64,000 nucleotides of DNA from Eledone cirrhosa (Eukaryota): assembly GCA_964016885.1 (NCBI GenBank), contig OZ024748.1, forward strand, positions 38,812,001 through 38,876,000. Reading direction: 5' to 3'. The notes under the pieces are model-generated. The model saw only the letters and a list, made by a program, of their open reading frames with translations. It had not been told where the DNA came from and did no database searches. Positions 6,513-62,785 of the stretch are shown here, in pieces (position 1 is the stretch's first letter; each line of letters begins with the position of its first letter). Both the position numbers and the translations under genes were made by a program.

Positions 6513-8475
<1,963 letters not shown>

Positions 8476-23360: not shown

Positions 23361-23455
23361 CTACACCTATTGGTCATAAAGTTTTAGTTTTGATTTAATA
23401 TAAATGTAGTCACATGTGTTTCATTTTGTTTTATTTCTACATGTCTTTCTTGCAG

Positions 23456-24037
23456 GACTTTCATGTGGCAAACAAGGAGCAGACATTGTCTTCGCTTTAG
23501 ATGCTTCATACAGCATTTGGCCGCTTCATTTCAAGAAACAGCTACAATTCGTCGTAAATGTCGTTGACCAATTCCCTATTGGAACCAAACAGAGTGATTT
23601 CCACGTTGCCGTGGTAACGTACAGTGAAAATATCACCGTACAATTTAATTTACGTGACTTCTTCCACAAGGACCAATTAAAGAGGGCCGTTATGCGAATC
23701 ACTCAATATTCCCCCGGGGGAACTTACACTCACAAGGCCATTGAATACATACGGCGACAGATGTTCACTATCCGAAATGGAGGACGAACCTACTCCGATA
23801 AAATCGTGGTTGTCATTACAGACGGATTATCGCAGGACCCTAAATCAACAAGAATGGAAGCGGCACGAGCACATTACGAAGGGATTCAAATTTTTGCTAT
23901 TGGGGTCGGAGCAGGGGTTGACAAACATGAACTAGAGTTTATAGCCTCGTCACCACCTCGGAATCACGTGTTTACAGTAGATAACTACCCCTTTCTTAAT
24001 TCCATTAAACGGAAGGTTGCCAGAGAAACATGCAAAG
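23456..24037 (+). CDS. VWA-domain exon 1 of a multi-VWA extracellular-matrix protein (matrilin/collagen VI-XII-like)
   Basis: TTTCTTGCAG acceptor, AAAG|GTGAGT donor, 582 nt, phase 1/1. Motifs [11 protein letters not shown] (MIDAS DxSxS), GGTYT, VITDG, IFAIGVG, with flanking Cys. Confidence 0.93.
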
Positions 24038-24557: not shown

Positions 24558-25010
24558 TTATTTATAGTTATATATACAGTATATACAACTATAAATAGGA
24601 AAGGTCAGTAATTTATTACTACCTTATTATCAGTAGAATGAGTACTCAATACCAAAGTAGGGTTCAATAATATCCTTTGATTCTGACTAAGTTATGAGTC
24701 TTGTTACTCTGGAGTTTCCCCTGTTAGACAAGAGTCATCACTTAGCTATAATAAAAACATATATATATAATTCTAAATTAAGATATATGTATATATATAT
24801 ATAGTGAGAGATAGGACTATATATCGAGAATACACAATATTTTGTATATATACAAAGCACATATTTCAAAGACAATATATATATAATGTAGAAGGTGAGT
24901 AATATTTTAGAACAATAAATCTATGCATATATCAGTAGCACTCAACAGTTGGTAGAACTGGAGTATATATAATAAAGAAGAAATTAAAACATGGTTAAAA
25001 GAGTTCCATA

Positions 25011-25080
25011 TATTTTATTATGCGCATTTCGAATACAAAATCATCCTGGGACAAAAATTGTGTTTTCATCAGATAAAATA
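25011..25080 (-). ncRNA. Type I minimal hammerhead ribozyme (inverted pLTR copy)
   Basis: Minus strand: TATTTTAT-CTGATGA-stem II-GAAA-TGCGCA-TA-ATAAAATA. Confidence 0.8.
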
Positions 25081-26705
25081 AGGTAACATGATATGAGGTA
25101 TAATAGCACTTATTTACAGGAAAGTACTAAGTCTACATATGACAGAAATATAGGTGTTAATACTATAGTAAGAAATAGATAGGAAAATAGAAAAAAAGGA
25201 AAGAAGAGGAGAAAAAGGAAAACGAAAGAGAAGAAAGGAAAAAAAGAAGAAAAAAAGGAAGCGAGAGAGAGAGAGACTTTTGATGTCAATGTAAACTCTA
25301 GACAAAATAACACAAGTATAAATACGTCAAAATTAACTTTGAGGAATGCATCAAATAGTAATGTAAATCTGGAAACTTTAGCACCTCCTTTAGTTAATTC
25401 CACCACTCCAGTTCCTAATATAATTAATCCTGGGCCACTTGCAAATAACTCTGTAAATAATCTTAATCGTAAATGCAACTGCCTTATTAGAACTAATTGT
25501 CCTCTTAGTAATTTCTGTCTCGATAAAAACCTAGTATACGAATGTAAAGTGGTAACTAGTACCAATTCCTATACCTACATTGGCTCTACTTCTACCTCCT
25601 TTAAAACAAAATTCTATAATCATTCTTCTACATTTAAATCTCCACTTAAAAGGACCAGCACCGCACTCTCAGAACTTATTTGGTCCCTAAAAGACAAAAA
25701 CATAAATTACGAAATTTCTTGGCGTAAAATCTACAACGCATCTCCATACTCCAATGCTTCCATATCTAGTGTTTGTAATTTATGTCTAGTTGAAAAATTT
25801 ACCATTATCTCGAATTTCAACACAATAATAAATCGAAGAAGCGATTTATTTGGACTTTGTAATCATAAATCCTACAAGACCTTTCACAAAGTATATAGCT
25901 GATGTCCTATAACATATTCCATGAGTCACGGTTATCTTTACACATCTTTCATTATACTCTACAATGTGTTAATTTGGTTTTCACATATTAAACCCTTTTC
26001 ATATATTAAACCCTTGATCTTTTTTTCTATAGCCTTAGATTTTCGCTCAAACCTTCGTAGATTTTGTAAACAAATTATGACGTCATGTTTTTCTACGTTT
26101 ATAAATCTTTCTAGCAATTTCCTTTATTTACTTGTTGATATAAAATAATAATTAAATAGTATACCCCACATATATAGATTTTTACTTGAAATTATTAATT
26201 TTGACATAGATAGACTATTTTTATTTTATTTTATAAAAATATTTTTTATATTTATTTTATTTTATTTTATTTTATTAATACATTTTTACACTTCTTAATC
26301 CTATTTTTAGTATTTAAACCCAATATAAAATAATATAGCCAGTTTCTATATTTAGACCTCTCATATTTGAATACCATCTATAATATTCGCACATACACCT
26401 CATCAATTTACTTTTTAACCGTTATTTACAGGTGTTTTCATTTTGACAGCGTTCCTGATCAAAAGTTTCTCTCTCTCTTTTTTTTCTTTCTCTCTCTCTC
26501 TCTCCCTCTTTCTCTCTCTCTCTCTCTTCCTTTTTTTCTTCTTTTTTCCTTTCTTCTCTTTCTTTTTCTTTTTTCTCCTCTTCTTTCCTTTTCTTCTATT
26601 TTCCTATCTATTTCTTGCTATAGTATTAACACCTATATTTCTGTCATATGTAGACTTAGCACTTTCCTGTAAACAAGTGCTATTATACCTCATATCATTT
26701 TACCT

Positions 26706-26775
26706 TATTTTATCTGATGAGAACACAATTTTTGTCTCAGGATGATTTTGTATTCGAAATGCGCATAATAAAATA
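26706..26775 (+). ncRNA. Type I minimal hammerhead ribozyme (3' pLTR)
   Basis: TATTTTAT-CTGATGA-GAACACAA...TTGTATTC-GAAA-TGCGCA-TA-ATAAAATA. Perfect 8-bp stem I and palindromic stem III (ATGCGCAT). Predicted cut after 26767. Confidence 0.88.
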
Positions 26776-26877
26776 TATGGAACTCTTTTAACCATCTTTC
26801 AATTTCTTTATTATATATATATATATATATATACAAACACACATACACACACGCGCGCGCACGCACACGCACGCACG

Positions 26878-27775: not shown

Positions 27776-28217
27776 CACAGTTAAGACGCGTGTTATACTA
27801 CAACACACAGATTTAAGCAAGTAGTTACGACGTCTGTCTCAAAACATACATATTACACTATACACACGCACACACATATATTACATTACATCACACACAT
27901 ACATACATACATATTACACTACATGACACACACACACACTACACACATACACACACACTATACACACACACACACATATTACATTACATCACACACATAC
28001 ATACATATTACACTACATCACACACACACTATACACACACACACACACATACATACATATTACACTACATCACACACACACGACACACACTACACACACA
28101 CACACACATACATACATACATATTACACTACACCACACACACACACACTACACACACACACACACATACATATATATAAACAACTGTTAGTTTTAACTTT
28201 ATAATTCTTTGTTTCAG

Positions 28218-28292
28218 TTCCAATCAGGCGAGAAAAACCCAGAAGTGATATCGATCCTTCGATAGTCTATGCTAAGAAGAAACTAACAAAAA
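28218..28292 (+). CDS. 75-nt linker micro-exon (VPIRREKPRSDIDPSIVYAKKKLTK) of the VWA gene
   Basis: TTCTTTGTTTCAG acceptor and AAA|GTAAGA donor. Phase 1/1, stop-free, joins VWA1 to VWA2 in frame. Confidence 0.75.
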
Positions 28293-34560: not shown

Positions 34561-34960
34561 ATGTGACAATTTATTTCGATAAGGGAGTGTTCAGTGTGGT
34601 TTTATGAGGTTTTAGAGATAGTGTCAAGCAACTGAGATCATGGAACAGTAATACGTTGAACTGTAAATTCTGAAGAGTTTCAAAAGAATACTTCACTTAA
34701 AGAGATATATCTATTGTCATTGGAAGAGCCTGAATCAAATCTTGCTAGAGAAATACTTATGAACTGGTGGCATTTCAACTGGAATGGAATATACTCTATT
34801 ATCTTCAATAATCAAAGAAACCAAAGAAATAACAAAATATATTCCCGTTCACAGAACTACTTCCTCTCTAAATTATCCCCCTTGTTACTTACTCTCTAAT
34901 ACTAAAGAAAATAAACTTTGTACTTTCACTTGTATTTTTTTTTTTATCTATTATTACTAG

Positions 34961-35527
34961 AATGTGGAGGCAAGCCAGCGGATGTTTACTTCTTACTGGA
35001 CTCTTCCAGTAGCATATGGCGACCTGATTTTGAGAAAGAAATAAACTTTGTGGAACATGTTATGGATCTTTTCAATACGGAAAACAGTAACACGAAAATT
35101 GCTTTGGTTACCTTCAGTGACAAGGTCCAACCTGTAATGAATCTGGCTTCTTATAACAAAAGTAAAGTGAACGAGATGCTTTCTCGGCCGGAAATCTATT
35201 TGACTGGTGGAGTGACAGACACAGCTGAAGCCATTAAATATGTGAGACAGAACGGTTTCCAAGGGCCACAAGCACGTAAAGGTGTGGCTCAGATCATGAT
35301 CGTCTTGACAGATGGCCAGTCAAAAGATTACGAGAATACGGTACGAGAATCTCGTCTCACTCACCAGGCTGGTATCTATGTGTTCGCTATAGGTATCGGA
35401 AAGGACGCTGATTACAAAGAACTGAAGCAAATCGCCAGTGACCCGGATATAAACTTCGTCTTCCGTGTCGATGTCTTTGATGCACTGGAATCGATAAAAG
35501 ATATTTTGGTGTTCAAAACTTGTGAGG
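34961..35527 (+). CDS. VWA-domain exon 2
   Basis: TTATTACTAG acceptor, GAGG|GTGAGT donor, 567 nt, phase 1/1. Motifs DVYFLLDSSSS, GGVTDT, VLTDGQS, VFAIGIG, with flanking Cys. Confidence 0.93.

Positions 35528-37850: not shown

Positions 37851-37852
<2 letters not shown>
37658..37852 (+). mobile_element. F1 fold-back mini-element, copy 3
   Basis: Same structure, with arm variant GAACGAGTAG/CTACTCGTTC. Confidence 0.8.
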
Positions 37853-37919
<67 letters not shown>

Positions 37920-38023
37920 TAAAAGGAATTCCAACTTTGTCTGATTAACTCGTTTTATTTACAATCCTTTAAAATTATAATGATATTATAATGAAATAGT
38001 ATGGTAGAATATTAGATGTTAAT

Positions 38024-38062
38024 TGAACAAGTACTTTCATGCTTTCGCAATCTTCAGGTTCA
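38024..38062 (-). ncRNA. Type I minimal hammerhead ribozyme (3' pLTR)
   Basis: Minus strand: TGAAC-CTGAAGA-T-TGC-GAAA-GCA-T-GAAA-GTAC-TT-GTTCA. Confidence 0.75.
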
Positions 38063-38959
38063 TATTCAATGTTGACAGTCAAGTTTGCAATTTTCGACTG
38101 TAATGAGATGGCTAAAAGTTGTGCCTTATATACAATAAAAAGGGGCTACAGAATGCTAAGTTTTGCAAACTGTATTTCGACCAATCGGTGTGTGGTTTCA
38201 TTAGATTACTAAAGCTGATTGGTTTAGGCGTCACGGTTGGTTGAGCATGTCTAACGACTTCTATTTGACCCTATCCAAAGCATTAATTGTTTTGCTATTT
38301 TTAGAAATGATGAAAATAGCATTTTCTAGGGTTTTTATAAAAAATCTTCAGTAATCATCACTATCAACATCACTTTTATTATTATTATTGTTGTTGTTGT
38401 TAGTGGTGGTAGTCGACATGGTCGTAGTCATAGTAGAAGTAATACCCCTAAACATTATTATTGTTCATTTAACTTGGGTTGGAATCTATCAATAAAATTA
38501 TTTTCTTTGATTTTTCTTTTGATTTCACTTGGGCTGTGTAATTTGTAGAATGGAAATATTATAAACATTTTCTGACCACATGTTGCTAGATGGTTACTCA
38601 GTCGTATCTGGCGGACTTTTGGGTCTCTGATTTGCTATCGATGCACCCGTGCACGTTCCGATAGTGCATCTCCAGACCGACATATAGTTCTTCACAATTC
38701 GGGCATTTAATGCAGTAAATTATAATTCTGCTTTTGCAGTTCATATTTGCATTTGGGAATATTTTTCCAGTTTTTGTGTTCATATATTGACCAGTATCTA
38801 TGAACTGACATGTGCCACATCGACTATCATTGCATTTAGATACAGTGAGTGATTGGTCTTTGTTGTTATTCTGTAGCCCCTTTTTACTGTATATAAGGCA
38901 CACATTTTAGCCATCTCATTACAGTCGAAAATTGCAAACTTGACTGTCACCACAGAATA

Positions 38960-38998
38960 TGAACCTGAAGATTGCGAAAGCATGAAAGTACTTGTTCA
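38960..38998 (+). ncRNA. Type I minimal hammerhead ribozyme (inverted pLTR copy)
   Basis: TGAAC-CTGAAGA-TTGCGAAAGCAT-GAAA-GTAC-TT-GTTCA. Palindromic stem III (AGTACT). Confidence 0.75.
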
Positions 38999-39150
38999 AT
39001 TAACATTTAATATTCTACCATACTATTTCATTATAATATCATTATAATTTTAAAGGATTGTAAATAAAATGAGTTAATCAGACAAAGTTGGAATTCCTTT
39101 TATTAATATAATCTTCTATACACAATCATACACACCCGTGTATATTTATT

Positions 39151-39225
<75 letters not shown>

Positions 39226-44567: not shown

Positions 44568-44606
<39 letters not shown>

Positions 44607-44660
44607 TTCAAGAAAGAAGAGTGACATGGTTGGCTATACAATAAGGGCTTTATTCACATT

Positions 44661-44767
44661 GCTGACAATTGTTTCTTTGATCTGGTAGGTCTAAAGTCCG
44701 CTAATCGCTTGATGTTGCGTCAATCGATCCCCAATACTTTGTTTATCACCAGTCGTTTCATCAGAGC
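44661..44767 (-). ncRNA. Type I hammerhead ribozyme with long stem II
   Basis: Minus strand: GCT-CTGATGA-[CTGGT...ACCAG]-GAAAC-AATT-GTC-AGC, then AATAAA. The base of stem II is imperfect. Confidence 0.65.
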
Positions 44768-49790: not shown

Positions 49791-50018
49791 TGGCGGAATA
49801 GGCGACCGTCTACATAACTCTACATAAACACATACAAACATCTATATATGTATACCAACTCACACATTTATATTACTTTCTGTCATTGGACTACTGCAAA
49901 GATGGGTTTTCGTATTGAAGTCTGGGACATTATTTTATCGAGTGCATATTGTCAAACCGCTAACAAGGTTTTATATATATATATAAAATTGAAAAAGTGG
50001 AGAATAACATGGTCAACA

Positions 50019-50066
<48 letters not shown>

Positions 50067-50576
50067 CCAGAAGCCTAACATTATTTATGTAAGCGGACAA
50101 TACTTGATTTTGGAGCCGCAGAAACCCAAATACTGGATTTTACCAACCTTCCAGGGGTCCGGGTAAATTTTCAATCACAGATATTTTTTATTTGTTTGAC
50201 CCGAATTACTTGATCGTTTTTTTGGCTATGCGAATGATTGTTTAACCATCGTCTCATTGTGTTTGGCCTTTAACGTTTGTTATAGCTCTGGTTTATTTGA
50301 ATCATTGAGCACTTGCCACACATCTCGGAGGTTTTTTTTCGTTATTTCGTGGGCCGAAATGCGATTCTCGATAATTTATGTTTGTTTATATATATATATA
50401 TATAATATATATAGTTTTAATATAGATGAGATTCTACAGGACTAGAACTGTTCTAGTCCTGTAGAATCTCATCTATATTAAAACTTTTATACTCTGCTAT
50501 CTATTGAGTACCTTACTTACTGTGATTACCTCCGATTCAACCCGGAATAACTTACCTATATATATATATATATATA

Positions 50577-51238
50577 AAAATGAAAGTGGAGAATAACATG
50601 GTCAACAGTACAAAAAAGGGGATTTATTTACAGTTTAACAATTGTTTCACTGATAAAGTTTTCTAAAAACAGCTGAACACTAGAAGCAGTGCCACTCAAT
50701 TTTAAATACGTTGTTAGCTCGATCAGATCTTCGGAAACTTATTTGTAAAACCAACCCAATCCATTGCATCACACATAAGTTGATATTTTTCTTGGTAGGA
50801 TGATAAATTTGTCTTAACAATCTCCTCACAATTTTCTGCATATCTAAATGATCTGCAATTTTTTAGTAATAGTTCTTCTTTCTTTTCTTCTGATAATCCA
50901 GCAAAAATGTAATAGAATATATGAAAATTCAATTCTCCTGCGTTCTGGAACACTACACGAGATTTTTCAAGCAAATATTCAGAAATGTTTCCACCTTTTA
51001 CTAATCCATCAATAAATTTGAGTTGAATATATTTTCCAAAACGGCTTGAATTATCATTCATGAGTGTTTGTGTTAGTTTTACAAATAAGTTTCCGAAGAT
51101 CTGATCGAGCTAACATCGTATTTAAAATTGAGTGGCACTACAATTTTTAGACAACTTTATCAGTGAAACAACTGTTAGACTGTGAATAAATCCCCTTTTT
51201 TGTACTGTTGACCATGATATTCTCCACTTTTTAAATTT
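50577..51238 (-). mobile_element. Inverted-repeat-flanked insertion (PLE-like termini) carrying a myosin fragment
   Basis: The left arm (about 50577-50751) is the reverse complement of the right arm (about 51076-51238). The arms contain ACT-TTATC-AGT-GAAAC-AA(T/C)T-GTT...AATAAA, a degenerate HHR 3' half. (TA)n on the left. An isolated terminus copy lies at about 49985-50019. Confidence 0.7.
50738..51073 (-). pseudogene. Intronless myosin motor-domain fragment (switch I region; class III-like)
   Basis: TQTLMNDNSSRFGKYIQLKF..G.ISEYLLEKSRVV.Q..GE.NFHIFYYIFAGL...FRY...MDWVGFT. No other myosin exons in the window. The class assignment is tentative. Confidence 0.88.
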
Positions 51239-51593
51239 GATTACTCCAAGATAAACTTGCATAGGAATACAAGTGAAATCATAAACTCGCCATCTACGTA
51301 AACCTCTTGTTGAGTTAAACAACGCCGTACGCTAAAACTATCCATAATAAGAAGTATTCACAACCTCTAACTGGATTACCTATAACGATATTTTGTTATT
51401 TTGTTATCCCTTATATATATATATATAACTACTCTGGTGGTCTTCATCATCTTCTCCAACTGATCCGACTGGATTTCCGAGACCCCACCACCACCACAGA
51501 GCTCCTGGATGTCTAAATTCAAATAAAACACCTTTGTCTCAGGGATAGAAACCGTTGGTGGGGGGTGGTTGAAATATACAGCATGAAGTACTA

Positions 51594-54725: not shown

Positions 54726-54857
54726 AGGGTTTACACAACAACAACGACAATAACATCAACAACAACAATACCAAAAGCTCCCTAAAATAAACCTGCTAAC
54801 CCCTCAGACTCATATCGATTGGAATAATCATTTAGCTTTCTTCTTGTTTCTTTTCAG

Positions 54858-55412
54858 TGACTTCGAAGTTCCCAAAAAAACGTCTGGACGTTATGTTTCT
54901 CGTTGACGACTGTCAGTTCGGACACAAGAACCTACATCGCATTAAAGAGTTCATAGCCGGCCTAACACGACAAATGCATATTGGATCTTACTGGACAAGG
55001 GTTGGTGCATTCTCCAGCCAATGCAGTCAACAACATAACGATATTTACCTGACAGAGTACCGAACGTCGAACGACTTCATCGCCGATTTCACAAAACCAG
55101 ACACACACAGCTTAGCATGGCTGATACGCCGCCTAAGACATCACGGTTTCGATCCTGCCAACGGTGGTAGAGATGATGCTCCACATGTAGGTATTCTGTT
55201 TGTTGATGACAAACTCAGTCAGCTTGATGCTAGTATCGTGGAAGCAAAAAGGGCTCGATTTAAAGGAATAAAACTCTTTGTTGTTGCTATTGGCAAACAA
55301 TATTCATTTAACGAAGTTAGACAACTGGCCTACAGGAATATGTACATCCGGGTAAAGGATTACGTTTACTTAGAAAGACATATCAGTGATTTTATGGATA
55401 CATTGCTAAAAG
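54858..55412 (+). CDS. VWA-domain exon 3 (degenerate MIDAS)
   Basis: TTTCTTTTCAG acceptor, AAAG|GTAAGT donor, 555 nt, phase 1/1. Motifs LDVMFLVD, TRVG, GGRDDAPHVGILFVD, GIKLFVVAIG. Confidence 0.9.
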
Positions 55413-55480
55413 GTAAGTTTTTAAATATATATATATATACGATATTAAACAAATGGAAACTATATTTATAAAACCATATT

Positions 55481-60749: not shown

Positions 60750-60905
60750 ATGTGTTACCCATATAAACTGTCTCCCTCTATTGGGGAAAATCGACTAACT
60801 TTTAAATTCCATCTGTGATAACATTTTACACGTTTTTATTGTATGTAAACTTCCCCCTTTGTATTTGTCCCCTTCTTTTGTGCCCCTGTGGCTAATAAAG
60901 AAATA
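60750..60905 (+). mobile_element. Tx1-like LINE 3'-UTR fragment
   Basis: Near-identical to about 63545-63697. It ends GGCTAATAAAGAAA and runs into (TATC)n. Confidence 0.75.
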
Positions 60906-60932
60906 TATCTATCTATCTATCTATCTAACTAT

Positions 60933-62785
60933 CTCGGAGCCGTTCAAAATCGCGCGGTCCATCCGACAAGGGTGCCCTCTCTCCTCCCTTCTGTATGTGT
61001 TGACTCTCGAGCCACTACTGCGGAAGTTGGAGTTGTTGCAGGGCATCCCTTTGGAACTGGGATTGCGGAAAGCGGTGTCGGCCTACGCCGATGACGTGAC
61101 AGTAATGGTGTCGACGGCCTCCGAAATCGAGGCGGCCAGCACCTTACTGGAGGAGTACGAAAGGTTCACAGGGGCTAAGCTGAACCGGGACAAGTCGATC
61201 GGTTTGCAACTCGGCACGTGGAGGGGCAGACCGATGCCCTCCGATGGCGTCGTCGGACGCTGGACGGAGGGCCCGGTGAAGTTGCTCGGGGTCTGGTTCG
61301 GACCGGACCTCCAGGTGGAGAAAAACTGGGCGGAGGTTACGAACAGGGTGTTTGCACTGACCCAGAAGTGGGCCAGTTGCAAACTATCCCTGAATGGTCG
61401 GGCGGAGGTGGCGAACACCTACATAGCGTCCGTCATCTACTACCGCCTGACCGTAGTGCCCTGCCCAAGGGAAACCCTCACCAAGATGGAGCGCGCGCTC
61501 TTCCAATTCCTTTGGAAGAGGCGGGCTCCTATGGTGAGGAGATCCATCTGCTGTCAACACCCTTCGAAAGGAGGGCTGGGGATGCCGTGGCTAATGATGC
61601 GTAAACACGCATTAAGGCTACGGCACCTCTACGTATTCCTCACCGGACAACCGGTGTGGGCCTCGTTTGTGAGACGAACCTTTCCCAGACTCGTCTCACT
61701 CACCGAGCTGCAATCCTGGGTCAAGCAAAGACCGAGAAAACTGGGCGCCTGGCACACTCAGTGTGCCCAGGCTCTCACCGCCCTCTGGCAGGCGGATCCG
61801 GTTATCAGTGGAGACTCCACCGCAACATTCTATAGAGGGCTGGTACGCAGCAGGTGCGACGACGCCCTCGGAGAAGCCCTAGACATGGAGGAGGACGAAC
61901 TGGCCAGCCTGTTCGGTAGGACATTCAGCCCGGGACCTATGGACAACTTCCAGAAGTCCCTGGCCTGGCAGTGCTACCGAGGAGCTTTACCCGTTCGAGA
62001 AAGGCTCTACAGACACGGGCGCCCGGGTAGGGACCCCGCCAAAAAGAACTGTCCCAGATGCGTGTGCAACGAGGAAACCGTTGCACACACATTGGTACAC
62101 TGCTCGGGCGTAGCCGATCTGTGGGGCTATGTCGAACAACTGCTGTCAAGGGTGGGACCGATCCGGTTGACCACCGAGTCTATTGTAATGATCAAGCCGC
62201 CTCCCCCCTTCAAAGATGCAGCAGAGGCGGTGTTTCTGTGCGTAATAGCCATGGCGAAAGAGGTTGTATGGTGGACGCGTCTGAAAGGACTAAGGTCAGG
62301 CACCTTTCTCTCTGGCCAACAACTGGTCCGTTTCTTCCGATATCATTTCGGAAGAAGGATCAGGATGGAGAGAGAGGTGCTGCACCCCAGTCGTTTTTAT
62401 GAAAGGTGGGTGAAAGTGGCGAGAATGGCCCGTGTGAATGGGCCTTCACTCTACATCAGACTATAGGTGAGGAAGATGAAAGACCAAGGGAGCACCCCTT
62501 CTCTGTGCTCCTGAGGAAAAGGGTTGCACACTTTTTCGGGGGTGTGTGCGACCCCCCAAGGCGCCTCCTCTCTATTGAGGATTTTGTTATAAATTTTATT
62601 TTTTGTTATATTTTATAACAAAATCCTCTATTGAGGAATTTGTTATAATTCTATTTTTTGTTATATTTTATTTTATTTTTATATATTGTTATTGCCTCCT
62701 CCCTATTGAGGACGCCTTGTTTTGTAAACTCCCCCCATTGTACTTGTCCCACTTTTGATGCCCTTGTGGCAAATAAAAGAAACAT
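60933..62785 (+). mobile_element. 5'-truncated L1/Tx1-clade LINE ORF2 (RT C-terminal half and zinc-binding domain) plus 3' UTR
   Basis: The frame is open to 62466: SIRQGCPLS, AYADDVT, NRDKS, LGVWF, KGGLGMP, CPRC..EETVAHTLVHC. GC-rich. It ends AATAAAAGAAAC and runs into (TATC)-like repeats. Confidence 0.92.

Follow-up and report, generated by a model that had tools for sequence, protein, structure and literature searches.

Intronless myosin exons framed by inverted Penelope-type termini in Eledone cirrhosa

This study used sequence inspection and genome comparison to characterize a single myosin retrocopy fragment of Eledone cirrhosa, which was made by Penelope-like machinery of the Hydra type. 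The sequence shows the loss of its introns, its junction at an exon end, the linkage of its flanks to a Penelope-like family, and its two-arm layout. The fragment belongs to an insertion at positions 50577-51411 of the window, that is, of the whole 64,000-nt stretch analyzed (GenBank assembly GCA_964016885.1, contig OZ024748.1, positions 38,812,001 to 38,876,000 of the forward strand). We propose, with a probability of about three in four, that spliced myosin exons were joined to a Penelope terminal repeat (pLTR) by splicing to the AG of the repeat, and that the chimeric RNA was copied twice in trans. A first-pass annotation of this DNA had suggested such a joining of a spliced transcript to a Penelope-type terminus; our analysis supports the suggestion, and splicing is probably the joining step, being the best supported.

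Results

Structure of the insertion

Mapping of a 615-residue protein located a plus-strand gene with three VWA domains in the window, with exons at 23455-24036, 28217-28282, 34960-35526, and 54857-55414 (+). The insertion is situated in the last intron of this gene, which is 19 kb long and separates the last two of these exons, and the cargo is antisense to the gene; the earlier placement of the myosin fragment within an intron of an unrelated gene was accurate. The four exons seen for this host gene (23455-55414, +) are 82-92% identical to P0140, and relatives of the encoded protein carry the labels cartilage matrix protein or collagen VI-like.

The insertion consists of two opposed copies. 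A (TA)n target tract (50557-50576) precedes pLTR arm 1 (50577-50737, minus strand), which carries a hammerhead-like core and an AATAAA, has no tail, and runs from the base after an acceptor-like AG to the first fixed 3' end of its family. The cargo follows on the same strand and comprises a complete 106-nt exon C (50738-50843; parent C5:121804546-121804441, ending AAG|GT in the parent), a complete 157-nt exon B (50844-51000; parent C5:121807110-121806954), and the 3' 70 nt of a 5'-truncated exon A (51001-51070; parent C5:121809259-121809190). The second copy, on the plus strand, begins with the last 22 nt of exon C (51068-51089, two changes relative to the parent) and is joined at the same point to pLTR arm 2 (51090-51238), which has a private 14-nt deletion; the annotation had correctly read the last myosin codons inside this arm. 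The insertion therefore holds 333 nt of myosin on one side and 22 nt on the other, which meet at a 5-nt microhomology (51068-51072) that reads TTGGG at both meeting places in the parent and has one change in the window copy. A one-sided tail of 173 nt (51239 to approximately 51411, plus strand) extends from arm 2 to the second fixed 3' end of the family and is followed by the right (TA)n target tract (51412-51427).

The inverted arms (50583-50759 versus 51068-51230) are 86% identical over 177 nt, with one 14-nt gap. The inverted arms of approximately 165 bp described previously were confirmed to this extent, but the right arm runs 173 nt further, so the layout is asymmetric: arm 1 stops at the first fixed 3' end and arm 2 at the second. 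The adjoining (TA)n, which is present on both sides, and the AATAAA in the arm were also as described, and a poly(A) looked for in the insertion sequence was absent. The myosin-pLTR junction is the same in both arms. Each arm differs from the family majority by approximately 3%, through private changes with no derived changes in common, and the cargo differs from its parent by 2.4%; these values indicate a single age for the arms and the cargo.

A spliced cargo derived from myosin exons of a different chromosome

The cargo (50738-51070, minus strand) is open over 111 codons of myosin motor-domain sequence, in agreement with the approximately 110 uninterrupted codons noted earlier, and matches Pfam Myosin_head with an E value of 1e-33. 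A genome search with the cargo returned only four matches, one of them the window itself and the others three exons of contig C5, and thus revealed no other processed copy of the parent myosin. The parent gene (C5:121732231-121841454, minus strand, 27 matched segments) is located on a chromosome other than that of the insertion. Two parent introns of 2079 and 2407 nt, both with GT-AG ends, are absent exactly from the cargo (2/2). This precise intron loss shows that the cargo is an RNA-based gene copy, or retrocopy; two exon junctions are crossed, and the fragment is not a DNA-level duplication of a single exon. The 3' end of the cargo coincides with the exact end of the third exon, where the parent reads on as AAG|GTACAT into a 9849-nt intron; the AATAAG that had been proposed as a splice boundary is accordingly an exon end followed by GT. 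In a spliced 2969-nt contig from sequencing run X4, the next parent exon is joined precisely at the position of 50738.

Eight differences separate the cargo from its parent, and the identical eight were found relative to the X4 contig. Six of them are non-synonymous, so selection on the cargo was rejected and its open frame is expected by chance; the cargo is probably a dead copy, a decaying fragment without function. Run X1 may come from the individual that was assembled; its contigs are identical to the window across both exon-exon junctions, have a depth there like that of the parent allele, and stop exactly at 50738 and 51070. Contigs from run X5, which represents another organism, contain the three exons separately and show no depth for the arms, although such contigs cannot prove absence. 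Among the sequencing-run contigs compared, no record crosses an arm-cargo junction.

The nearest proteins that carry a name are from octopods, with 84% for an Octopus bimaculoides protein labelled myosin-IIIb. The Pfam list for this protein contains motor and SH2 domains and no kinase domain, and we take it and the parent myosin to be class XXVIII.

The arms belong to a Penelope-like family

A genome-wide search for the arm yielded 2172 first-look candidates, and the best among 40 that were scored are 94-97% alike; arm 1 matches many genomic copies at 93-97%. At locus L040, the arm occurs twice on the same strand (positions 1675 and 5183), 3.5 kb apart, as direct pLTRs in a partial tandem, and the two copies flank broken coding sequence with RWK, DKT, YRDD, CxCx5C, and IVY..IGST motifs. 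Across L040-L042, YRDD and IVY..IGST..KRW motifs lie between arm copies in broken ORFs, which bears out a linkage of the arm to RT/GIY-YIG coding sequence. Pfam matches were below the cut-off, both for the family ORF (RVT_1, E 0.011) and for its homolog P0122 (RVT_1, E 0.004; GIY-YIG, E 0.035), and a PDB sequence search with the homolog gave no match. Judged by eye, CCHH is not present in the family coding sequence. From these motifs, the arm family is classified as EN+ Penelope-like, with a pLTR linked to one ORF that carries RT together with a GIY-YIG-type domain at its C terminus.

As given in the text of Craig et al. 2021 (PMC8557442), the Hydra clade is defined by RWK, DKT, a CxCx5C linker, the lack of CCHH, and insertion into (TA)n. 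The arm family matches this definition at the level of sequence motifs, by which the assignment was made; unlike the elements of that clade, which are generally under 3 kb, its unit is approximately 3.5 kb.

Inverted, 5'-truncated copies with a one-sided tail were found in the window and at L011, L020, L021, L041, and L042. Among 149 anchor sites, 47 stop at the first fixed 3' end and 39 at the second, each in (TA)n; one site continues into the ORF, and the other 62 were unclassed for their 3' end. The first-pass annotation had recognized a degenerate 3' half of a hammerhead ribozyme in the arm. A whole hammerhead-like core is legible by eye, but a search of the arm in Rfam gave no hammerhead match and the fold of minimum energy departs from it. 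The motif CTGAAGA occurs in 56% of 118 family copies, and both window arms have CCGAAGA.

The window contains several further repeats. A 37-nt terminal fragment of the arm family lies between two (TA)n tracts at 49983-50019, 590 nt upstream of the insertion, and a related, older terminus with 74% identity to the arm adjoins (TA)n at 44585-44681. A near-perfect palindrome of 72 nt at 50413-50484, just left of the insertion, is part of a very high-copy repeat. Two Penelope-like insertions are present, one at 24964-26819 with a Hydra-type CxCx5C endonuclease (43% to the arm family) and one at 37852-39196 with a different cysteine-rich endonuclease. They had been described as sharing the layout of the myosin insertion; inverted arms are indeed present, of 313 and 329 nt, but neither insertion has a DNA match to the arm family, and both are members of other families. 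Two LINE-type RT open frames of more than 550 codons lie at 6514-8208 and 60799-62466.

The exon end is joined at an acceptor-like AG

Native copies of the family read ...TTTTTTATAACAG|TTTCC at the junction, that is, a T-rich tract followed by CAG, so that the arm is preceded by AG as had been anticipated. Upstream of this AG, 274-452 nt are free of other AG dinucleotides in nine of the 11 native sites checked, a zone that, given its composition, is no more than mildly unusual (P 0.03-0.06). In the window, the end of the myosin exon takes the place of all native sequence up to the bar at the acceptor-like AG, and the junction keeps no native upstream bases beyond the AG. This exact replacement is the pattern that splicing would give. 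The junction lies at the 3' end of a host exon and after an AG of the element, as would be expected of exon trapping.

In D. virilis Penelope, an intron ends where hammerhead helix I has its 5' end (PMC4209133, available text), and a short exon and an intron precede this hammerhead-side intron end (PMC2377424, available text). By our by-eye assignment, the AG of the window would sit at the same place as the D. virilis intron end; a counterpart of the short upstream exon and intron was not found in the arm family. The annotation had also expected the arm sequence in the downstream intron of the parent, and this expectation failed: neither that intron nor the 220 kb around the parent (C5:121681001-121901000) contains arm-family sequence of at least 40 nt.

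A second chimera and a census of family sites

The same joining point was found in L073 (C17:22576296-22576550), in which an inverted tail tip is followed by an 84-nt piece from a different hammerhead-like repeat and then by the AG junction and pLTR. The 84-nt piece ends at a GT donor of its own repeat, and other copies of this second repeat continue as AAG|GTAAAA in all five of the other loci inspected. These sequences support the use of the pLTR AG as a putative acceptor. At the donor of the second repeat, the 15 non-G variants comprise 12 point changes and three rearrangements; because all three rearrangements follow AG, they fit either splicing or AG microhomology. Another copy of the second repeat, L233 (C5:26520318), is without exactly 19 nt that start with GT and end with AG, a gap that could stem from splicing across tandem copies or from deletion by microhomology.

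Five patterns for the sequence preceding the anchor gave 14, 14, 6, 106, and 14 sites; 100 of the 106 loci were inspected, and nothing was gained with a degenerate pattern. Ahead of the anchor, 88 of the 149 sites have native upstream sequence, 47 an abutting opposite arm, and 14 other sequence. The classifier behind these counts is rough: it placed two chimeric sites in the native class and counted fold-backs twice. A hot spot of 5' ends lies at -7 to 0 before TTTC (47/149 sites); its position near the AG likely marks the 5' end, or start, of element RNA. A 7-nt quasi-palindrome at the hot spot may aid it. Most hot-spot joins retain 4-7 native upstream bases, and the arm-to-arm joins L015, L016, L063, and L067 keep just the AG, with no GT donor. 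Two further loci were rejected as carriers of host cargo: L092 is a fold-back with another repeat, and L195 has a 20-nt piece inside the arm of another family. L069 is probably an old repeat, and foreign pieces also lie upstream at L029, L080, and L087. The myosin fragment is the one host-gene cargo found among the 149 family sites examined.

Discussion

Alternative explanations

Instead of splicing, a template jump may be envisaged, in which RT runs to the end of a short element RNA, whose 5' terminus is at the AG, and hops to a myosin RNA, either to a 5' exon that was released and has its 3' end free or by the 2-nt AG microhomology. The strong hot spot at -7 to 0 is what such a jump would use, LTR elements are documented to capture partial mRNAs by way of microsimilarity (PMC5131818, available text), and the arm-to-arm joins that hold only AG do so with no donor. 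The lack of a donor element in the 220 kb around the parent, the mild degree to which the AG-free zone is unusual, and the finding of just one host-gene cargo also count against splicing, and the three rearranged donor variants of the second repeat can be explained as AG microhomology. However, exon ends account for just three of the 21 AG dinucleotides in the cargo, so that a jump would need to land on one of these, and the window join keeps nothing beyond the AG, whereas most hot-spot joins do. A jump must also produce the same junction twice, with the 22 myosin bases of the second arm added either when it was copied again later or through conversion between the arms; the genome, with its four cargo matches, contains no other chimera with this myosin cargo, and L073 likewise lands on a GT donor. 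We regard a template jump as unlikely, though still a serious contender.

The insertion might instead have arisen from a myosin retrocopy made by a LINE and later framed by an unrelated element, or from DNA-level capture between inverted repeats of the Pack-TIR type. Other RT-bearing retroelements are indeed present in the window, but this origin is very improbable. A LINE-type processed pseudogene was rejected because the cargo has no poly(A) and no mRNA 3' end and stops mid-gene, an internal exon end being joined to a pLTR; a DNA transposon with terminal inverted repeats, or Pack-TIR capture, is ruled out by the asymmetric arms, the spliced cargo, and the RT encoded by the family. The arms moreover contain cargo sequence and end at the two retro-type 3' ends of the family, and both the duplicated junction and the absence of another processed copy in the genome disfavor either route. 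An assembly artefact or cDNA contamination is scarcely credible: the arm-cargo junction is spanned by no record among the run contigs, but the cargo differs from the parent and its mRNA at eight positions, and the X1 contigs match the window across both exon-exon junctions at about the depth of the parent allele.

Proposed mechanism

Under the preferred reading, the GT donor of the myosin exon would have been spliced to the pLTR AG, giving a covalent exon-pLTR RNA. The acceptor, ...TTTTATAACAG|TTT, could have been supplied by an element copy in the next 9.8-kb intron of the parent, now absent from the assembly, or by a separate element transcript; given the empty 220 kb around the parent, we infer that the donor element was on another haplotype, was lost, or acted as a separate transcript. 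Both arms cross the same junction, which argues for a covalent chimeric template, and this shared junction together with the single age of the parts suggests that the two cDNAs were likely copied from one exon-pLTR RNA species. By analogy with the enzyme described in PMC11167929 (available text), a dimeric element protein would nick both strands of the AT-rich (TA)n target, and two cDNAs would begin at the two internal start sites of the family, 173 nt apart. One cDNA would run 333 nt into myosin and the other 22 nt, their ends would be joined at the 5-nt microhomology, and the copy would then have decayed neutrally.

A wider possibility is that the pLTR is a general splice-in tag, whose AG-free pyrimidine tract and acceptor take exons in trans and whose tagged RNA is copied twice by one dimer; this generalization is tentative and rather doubtful.

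Comparison with known systems

Each of the comparisons below relies on the accessible part of the source cited. In Adineta vaga, a host NRPS gene flanked by pLTRs was mobilized in trans; it retained all of its introns and had an 8-bp TSD (Arkhipova et al. 2013, PMC3846280). The myosin insertion resembles this capture in having host coding sequence between pLTRs, in trans, with an inverted pLTR and a one-sided tail, but the A. vaga cargo is a whole gene, whereas the myosin is spliced, 5'-truncated, and joined at an exon end, with the junction in both arms. SVA_F1 (MAST2) and pt_SVA_D6 (STK40) arose by exon trapping followed by retrotransposition, with splicing deduced from exon-end coincidence (PMC6139936); here too, the exact 3' end of a host exon is joined to an AG inside a retroelement and then retrotransposed, and splicing at the myosin junction is argued from the same coincidence. 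The SVA cases differ in their use of LINE-1 proteins, poly(A) priming, TSDs, and 84-94 copies, in contrast to the Penelope-type termini and single-copy, head-to-head arrangement of the myosin insertion.

The Poseidon element PAc has two internal RT start sites that define its tail, both strands of its AT-rich target are cut and extended by a predicted dimer, and its substrate is unprocessed RNA (Frangieh et al. 2024, PMC11167929). Two fixed 3' ends that yield a one-sided tail, and an AT-rich target, are shared with the arm family; the PAc tail is 30-40 nt, unlike the 173-nt tail here, whose template, as read from sequence, includes host exons. In LTR-mediated retroposition (Tan et al. 2016, PMC5131818), the copy lies between direct LTRs and its junctions are microsimilarity switches, with a median of 6 bp, that can fall at any point of the mRNA. 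Its products are likewise partial retrocopies that have no poly(A) and are bounded by retroelement ends, whereas the myosin copy has its 3' junction at an exon end, 2 nt shared, and inverted arms. The available text of Craig et al. 2021 (PMC8557442) makes no mention of host-gene capture by the Hydra clade. Penelope host-gene capture with introns kept and SVA exon trapping are each known; their combination, spliced host exons joined to a pLTR, was not found in the literature searched, which consisted mostly of open-access main texts, including PMC6431247 and PMC13282606.

Implications

As a fossil, the insertion preserves host exons that are fully spliced, with Penelope-type ends around them and one RNA junction in both opposed arms. 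Retention of introns during movement is a known trait of Penelope-like elements. The one host-gene capture described for them also kept introns (PMC3846280, available text), which together with the intron-keeping moves has left open to what extent these elements use spliced RNA. The spliced exons and the same RNA junction in both arms support an RNA template that was copied in trans and had no more than the pLTR and tail in cis; they also support a yield of two cDNAs per insertion from a single RNA species. The term exon shuffling, used in the first-pass annotation, overstates this outcome, because the product is a decaying fragment and the one host-gene cargo found among the family sites examined. 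The finding nevertheless bears on how an intron-keeping class of retroelements uses spliced RNA, and if the pLTR does act as a splice-in tag, Penelope-rich genomes would hold hidden retrocopies, with inverted arms and no poly(A), that retrocopy pipelines miss.
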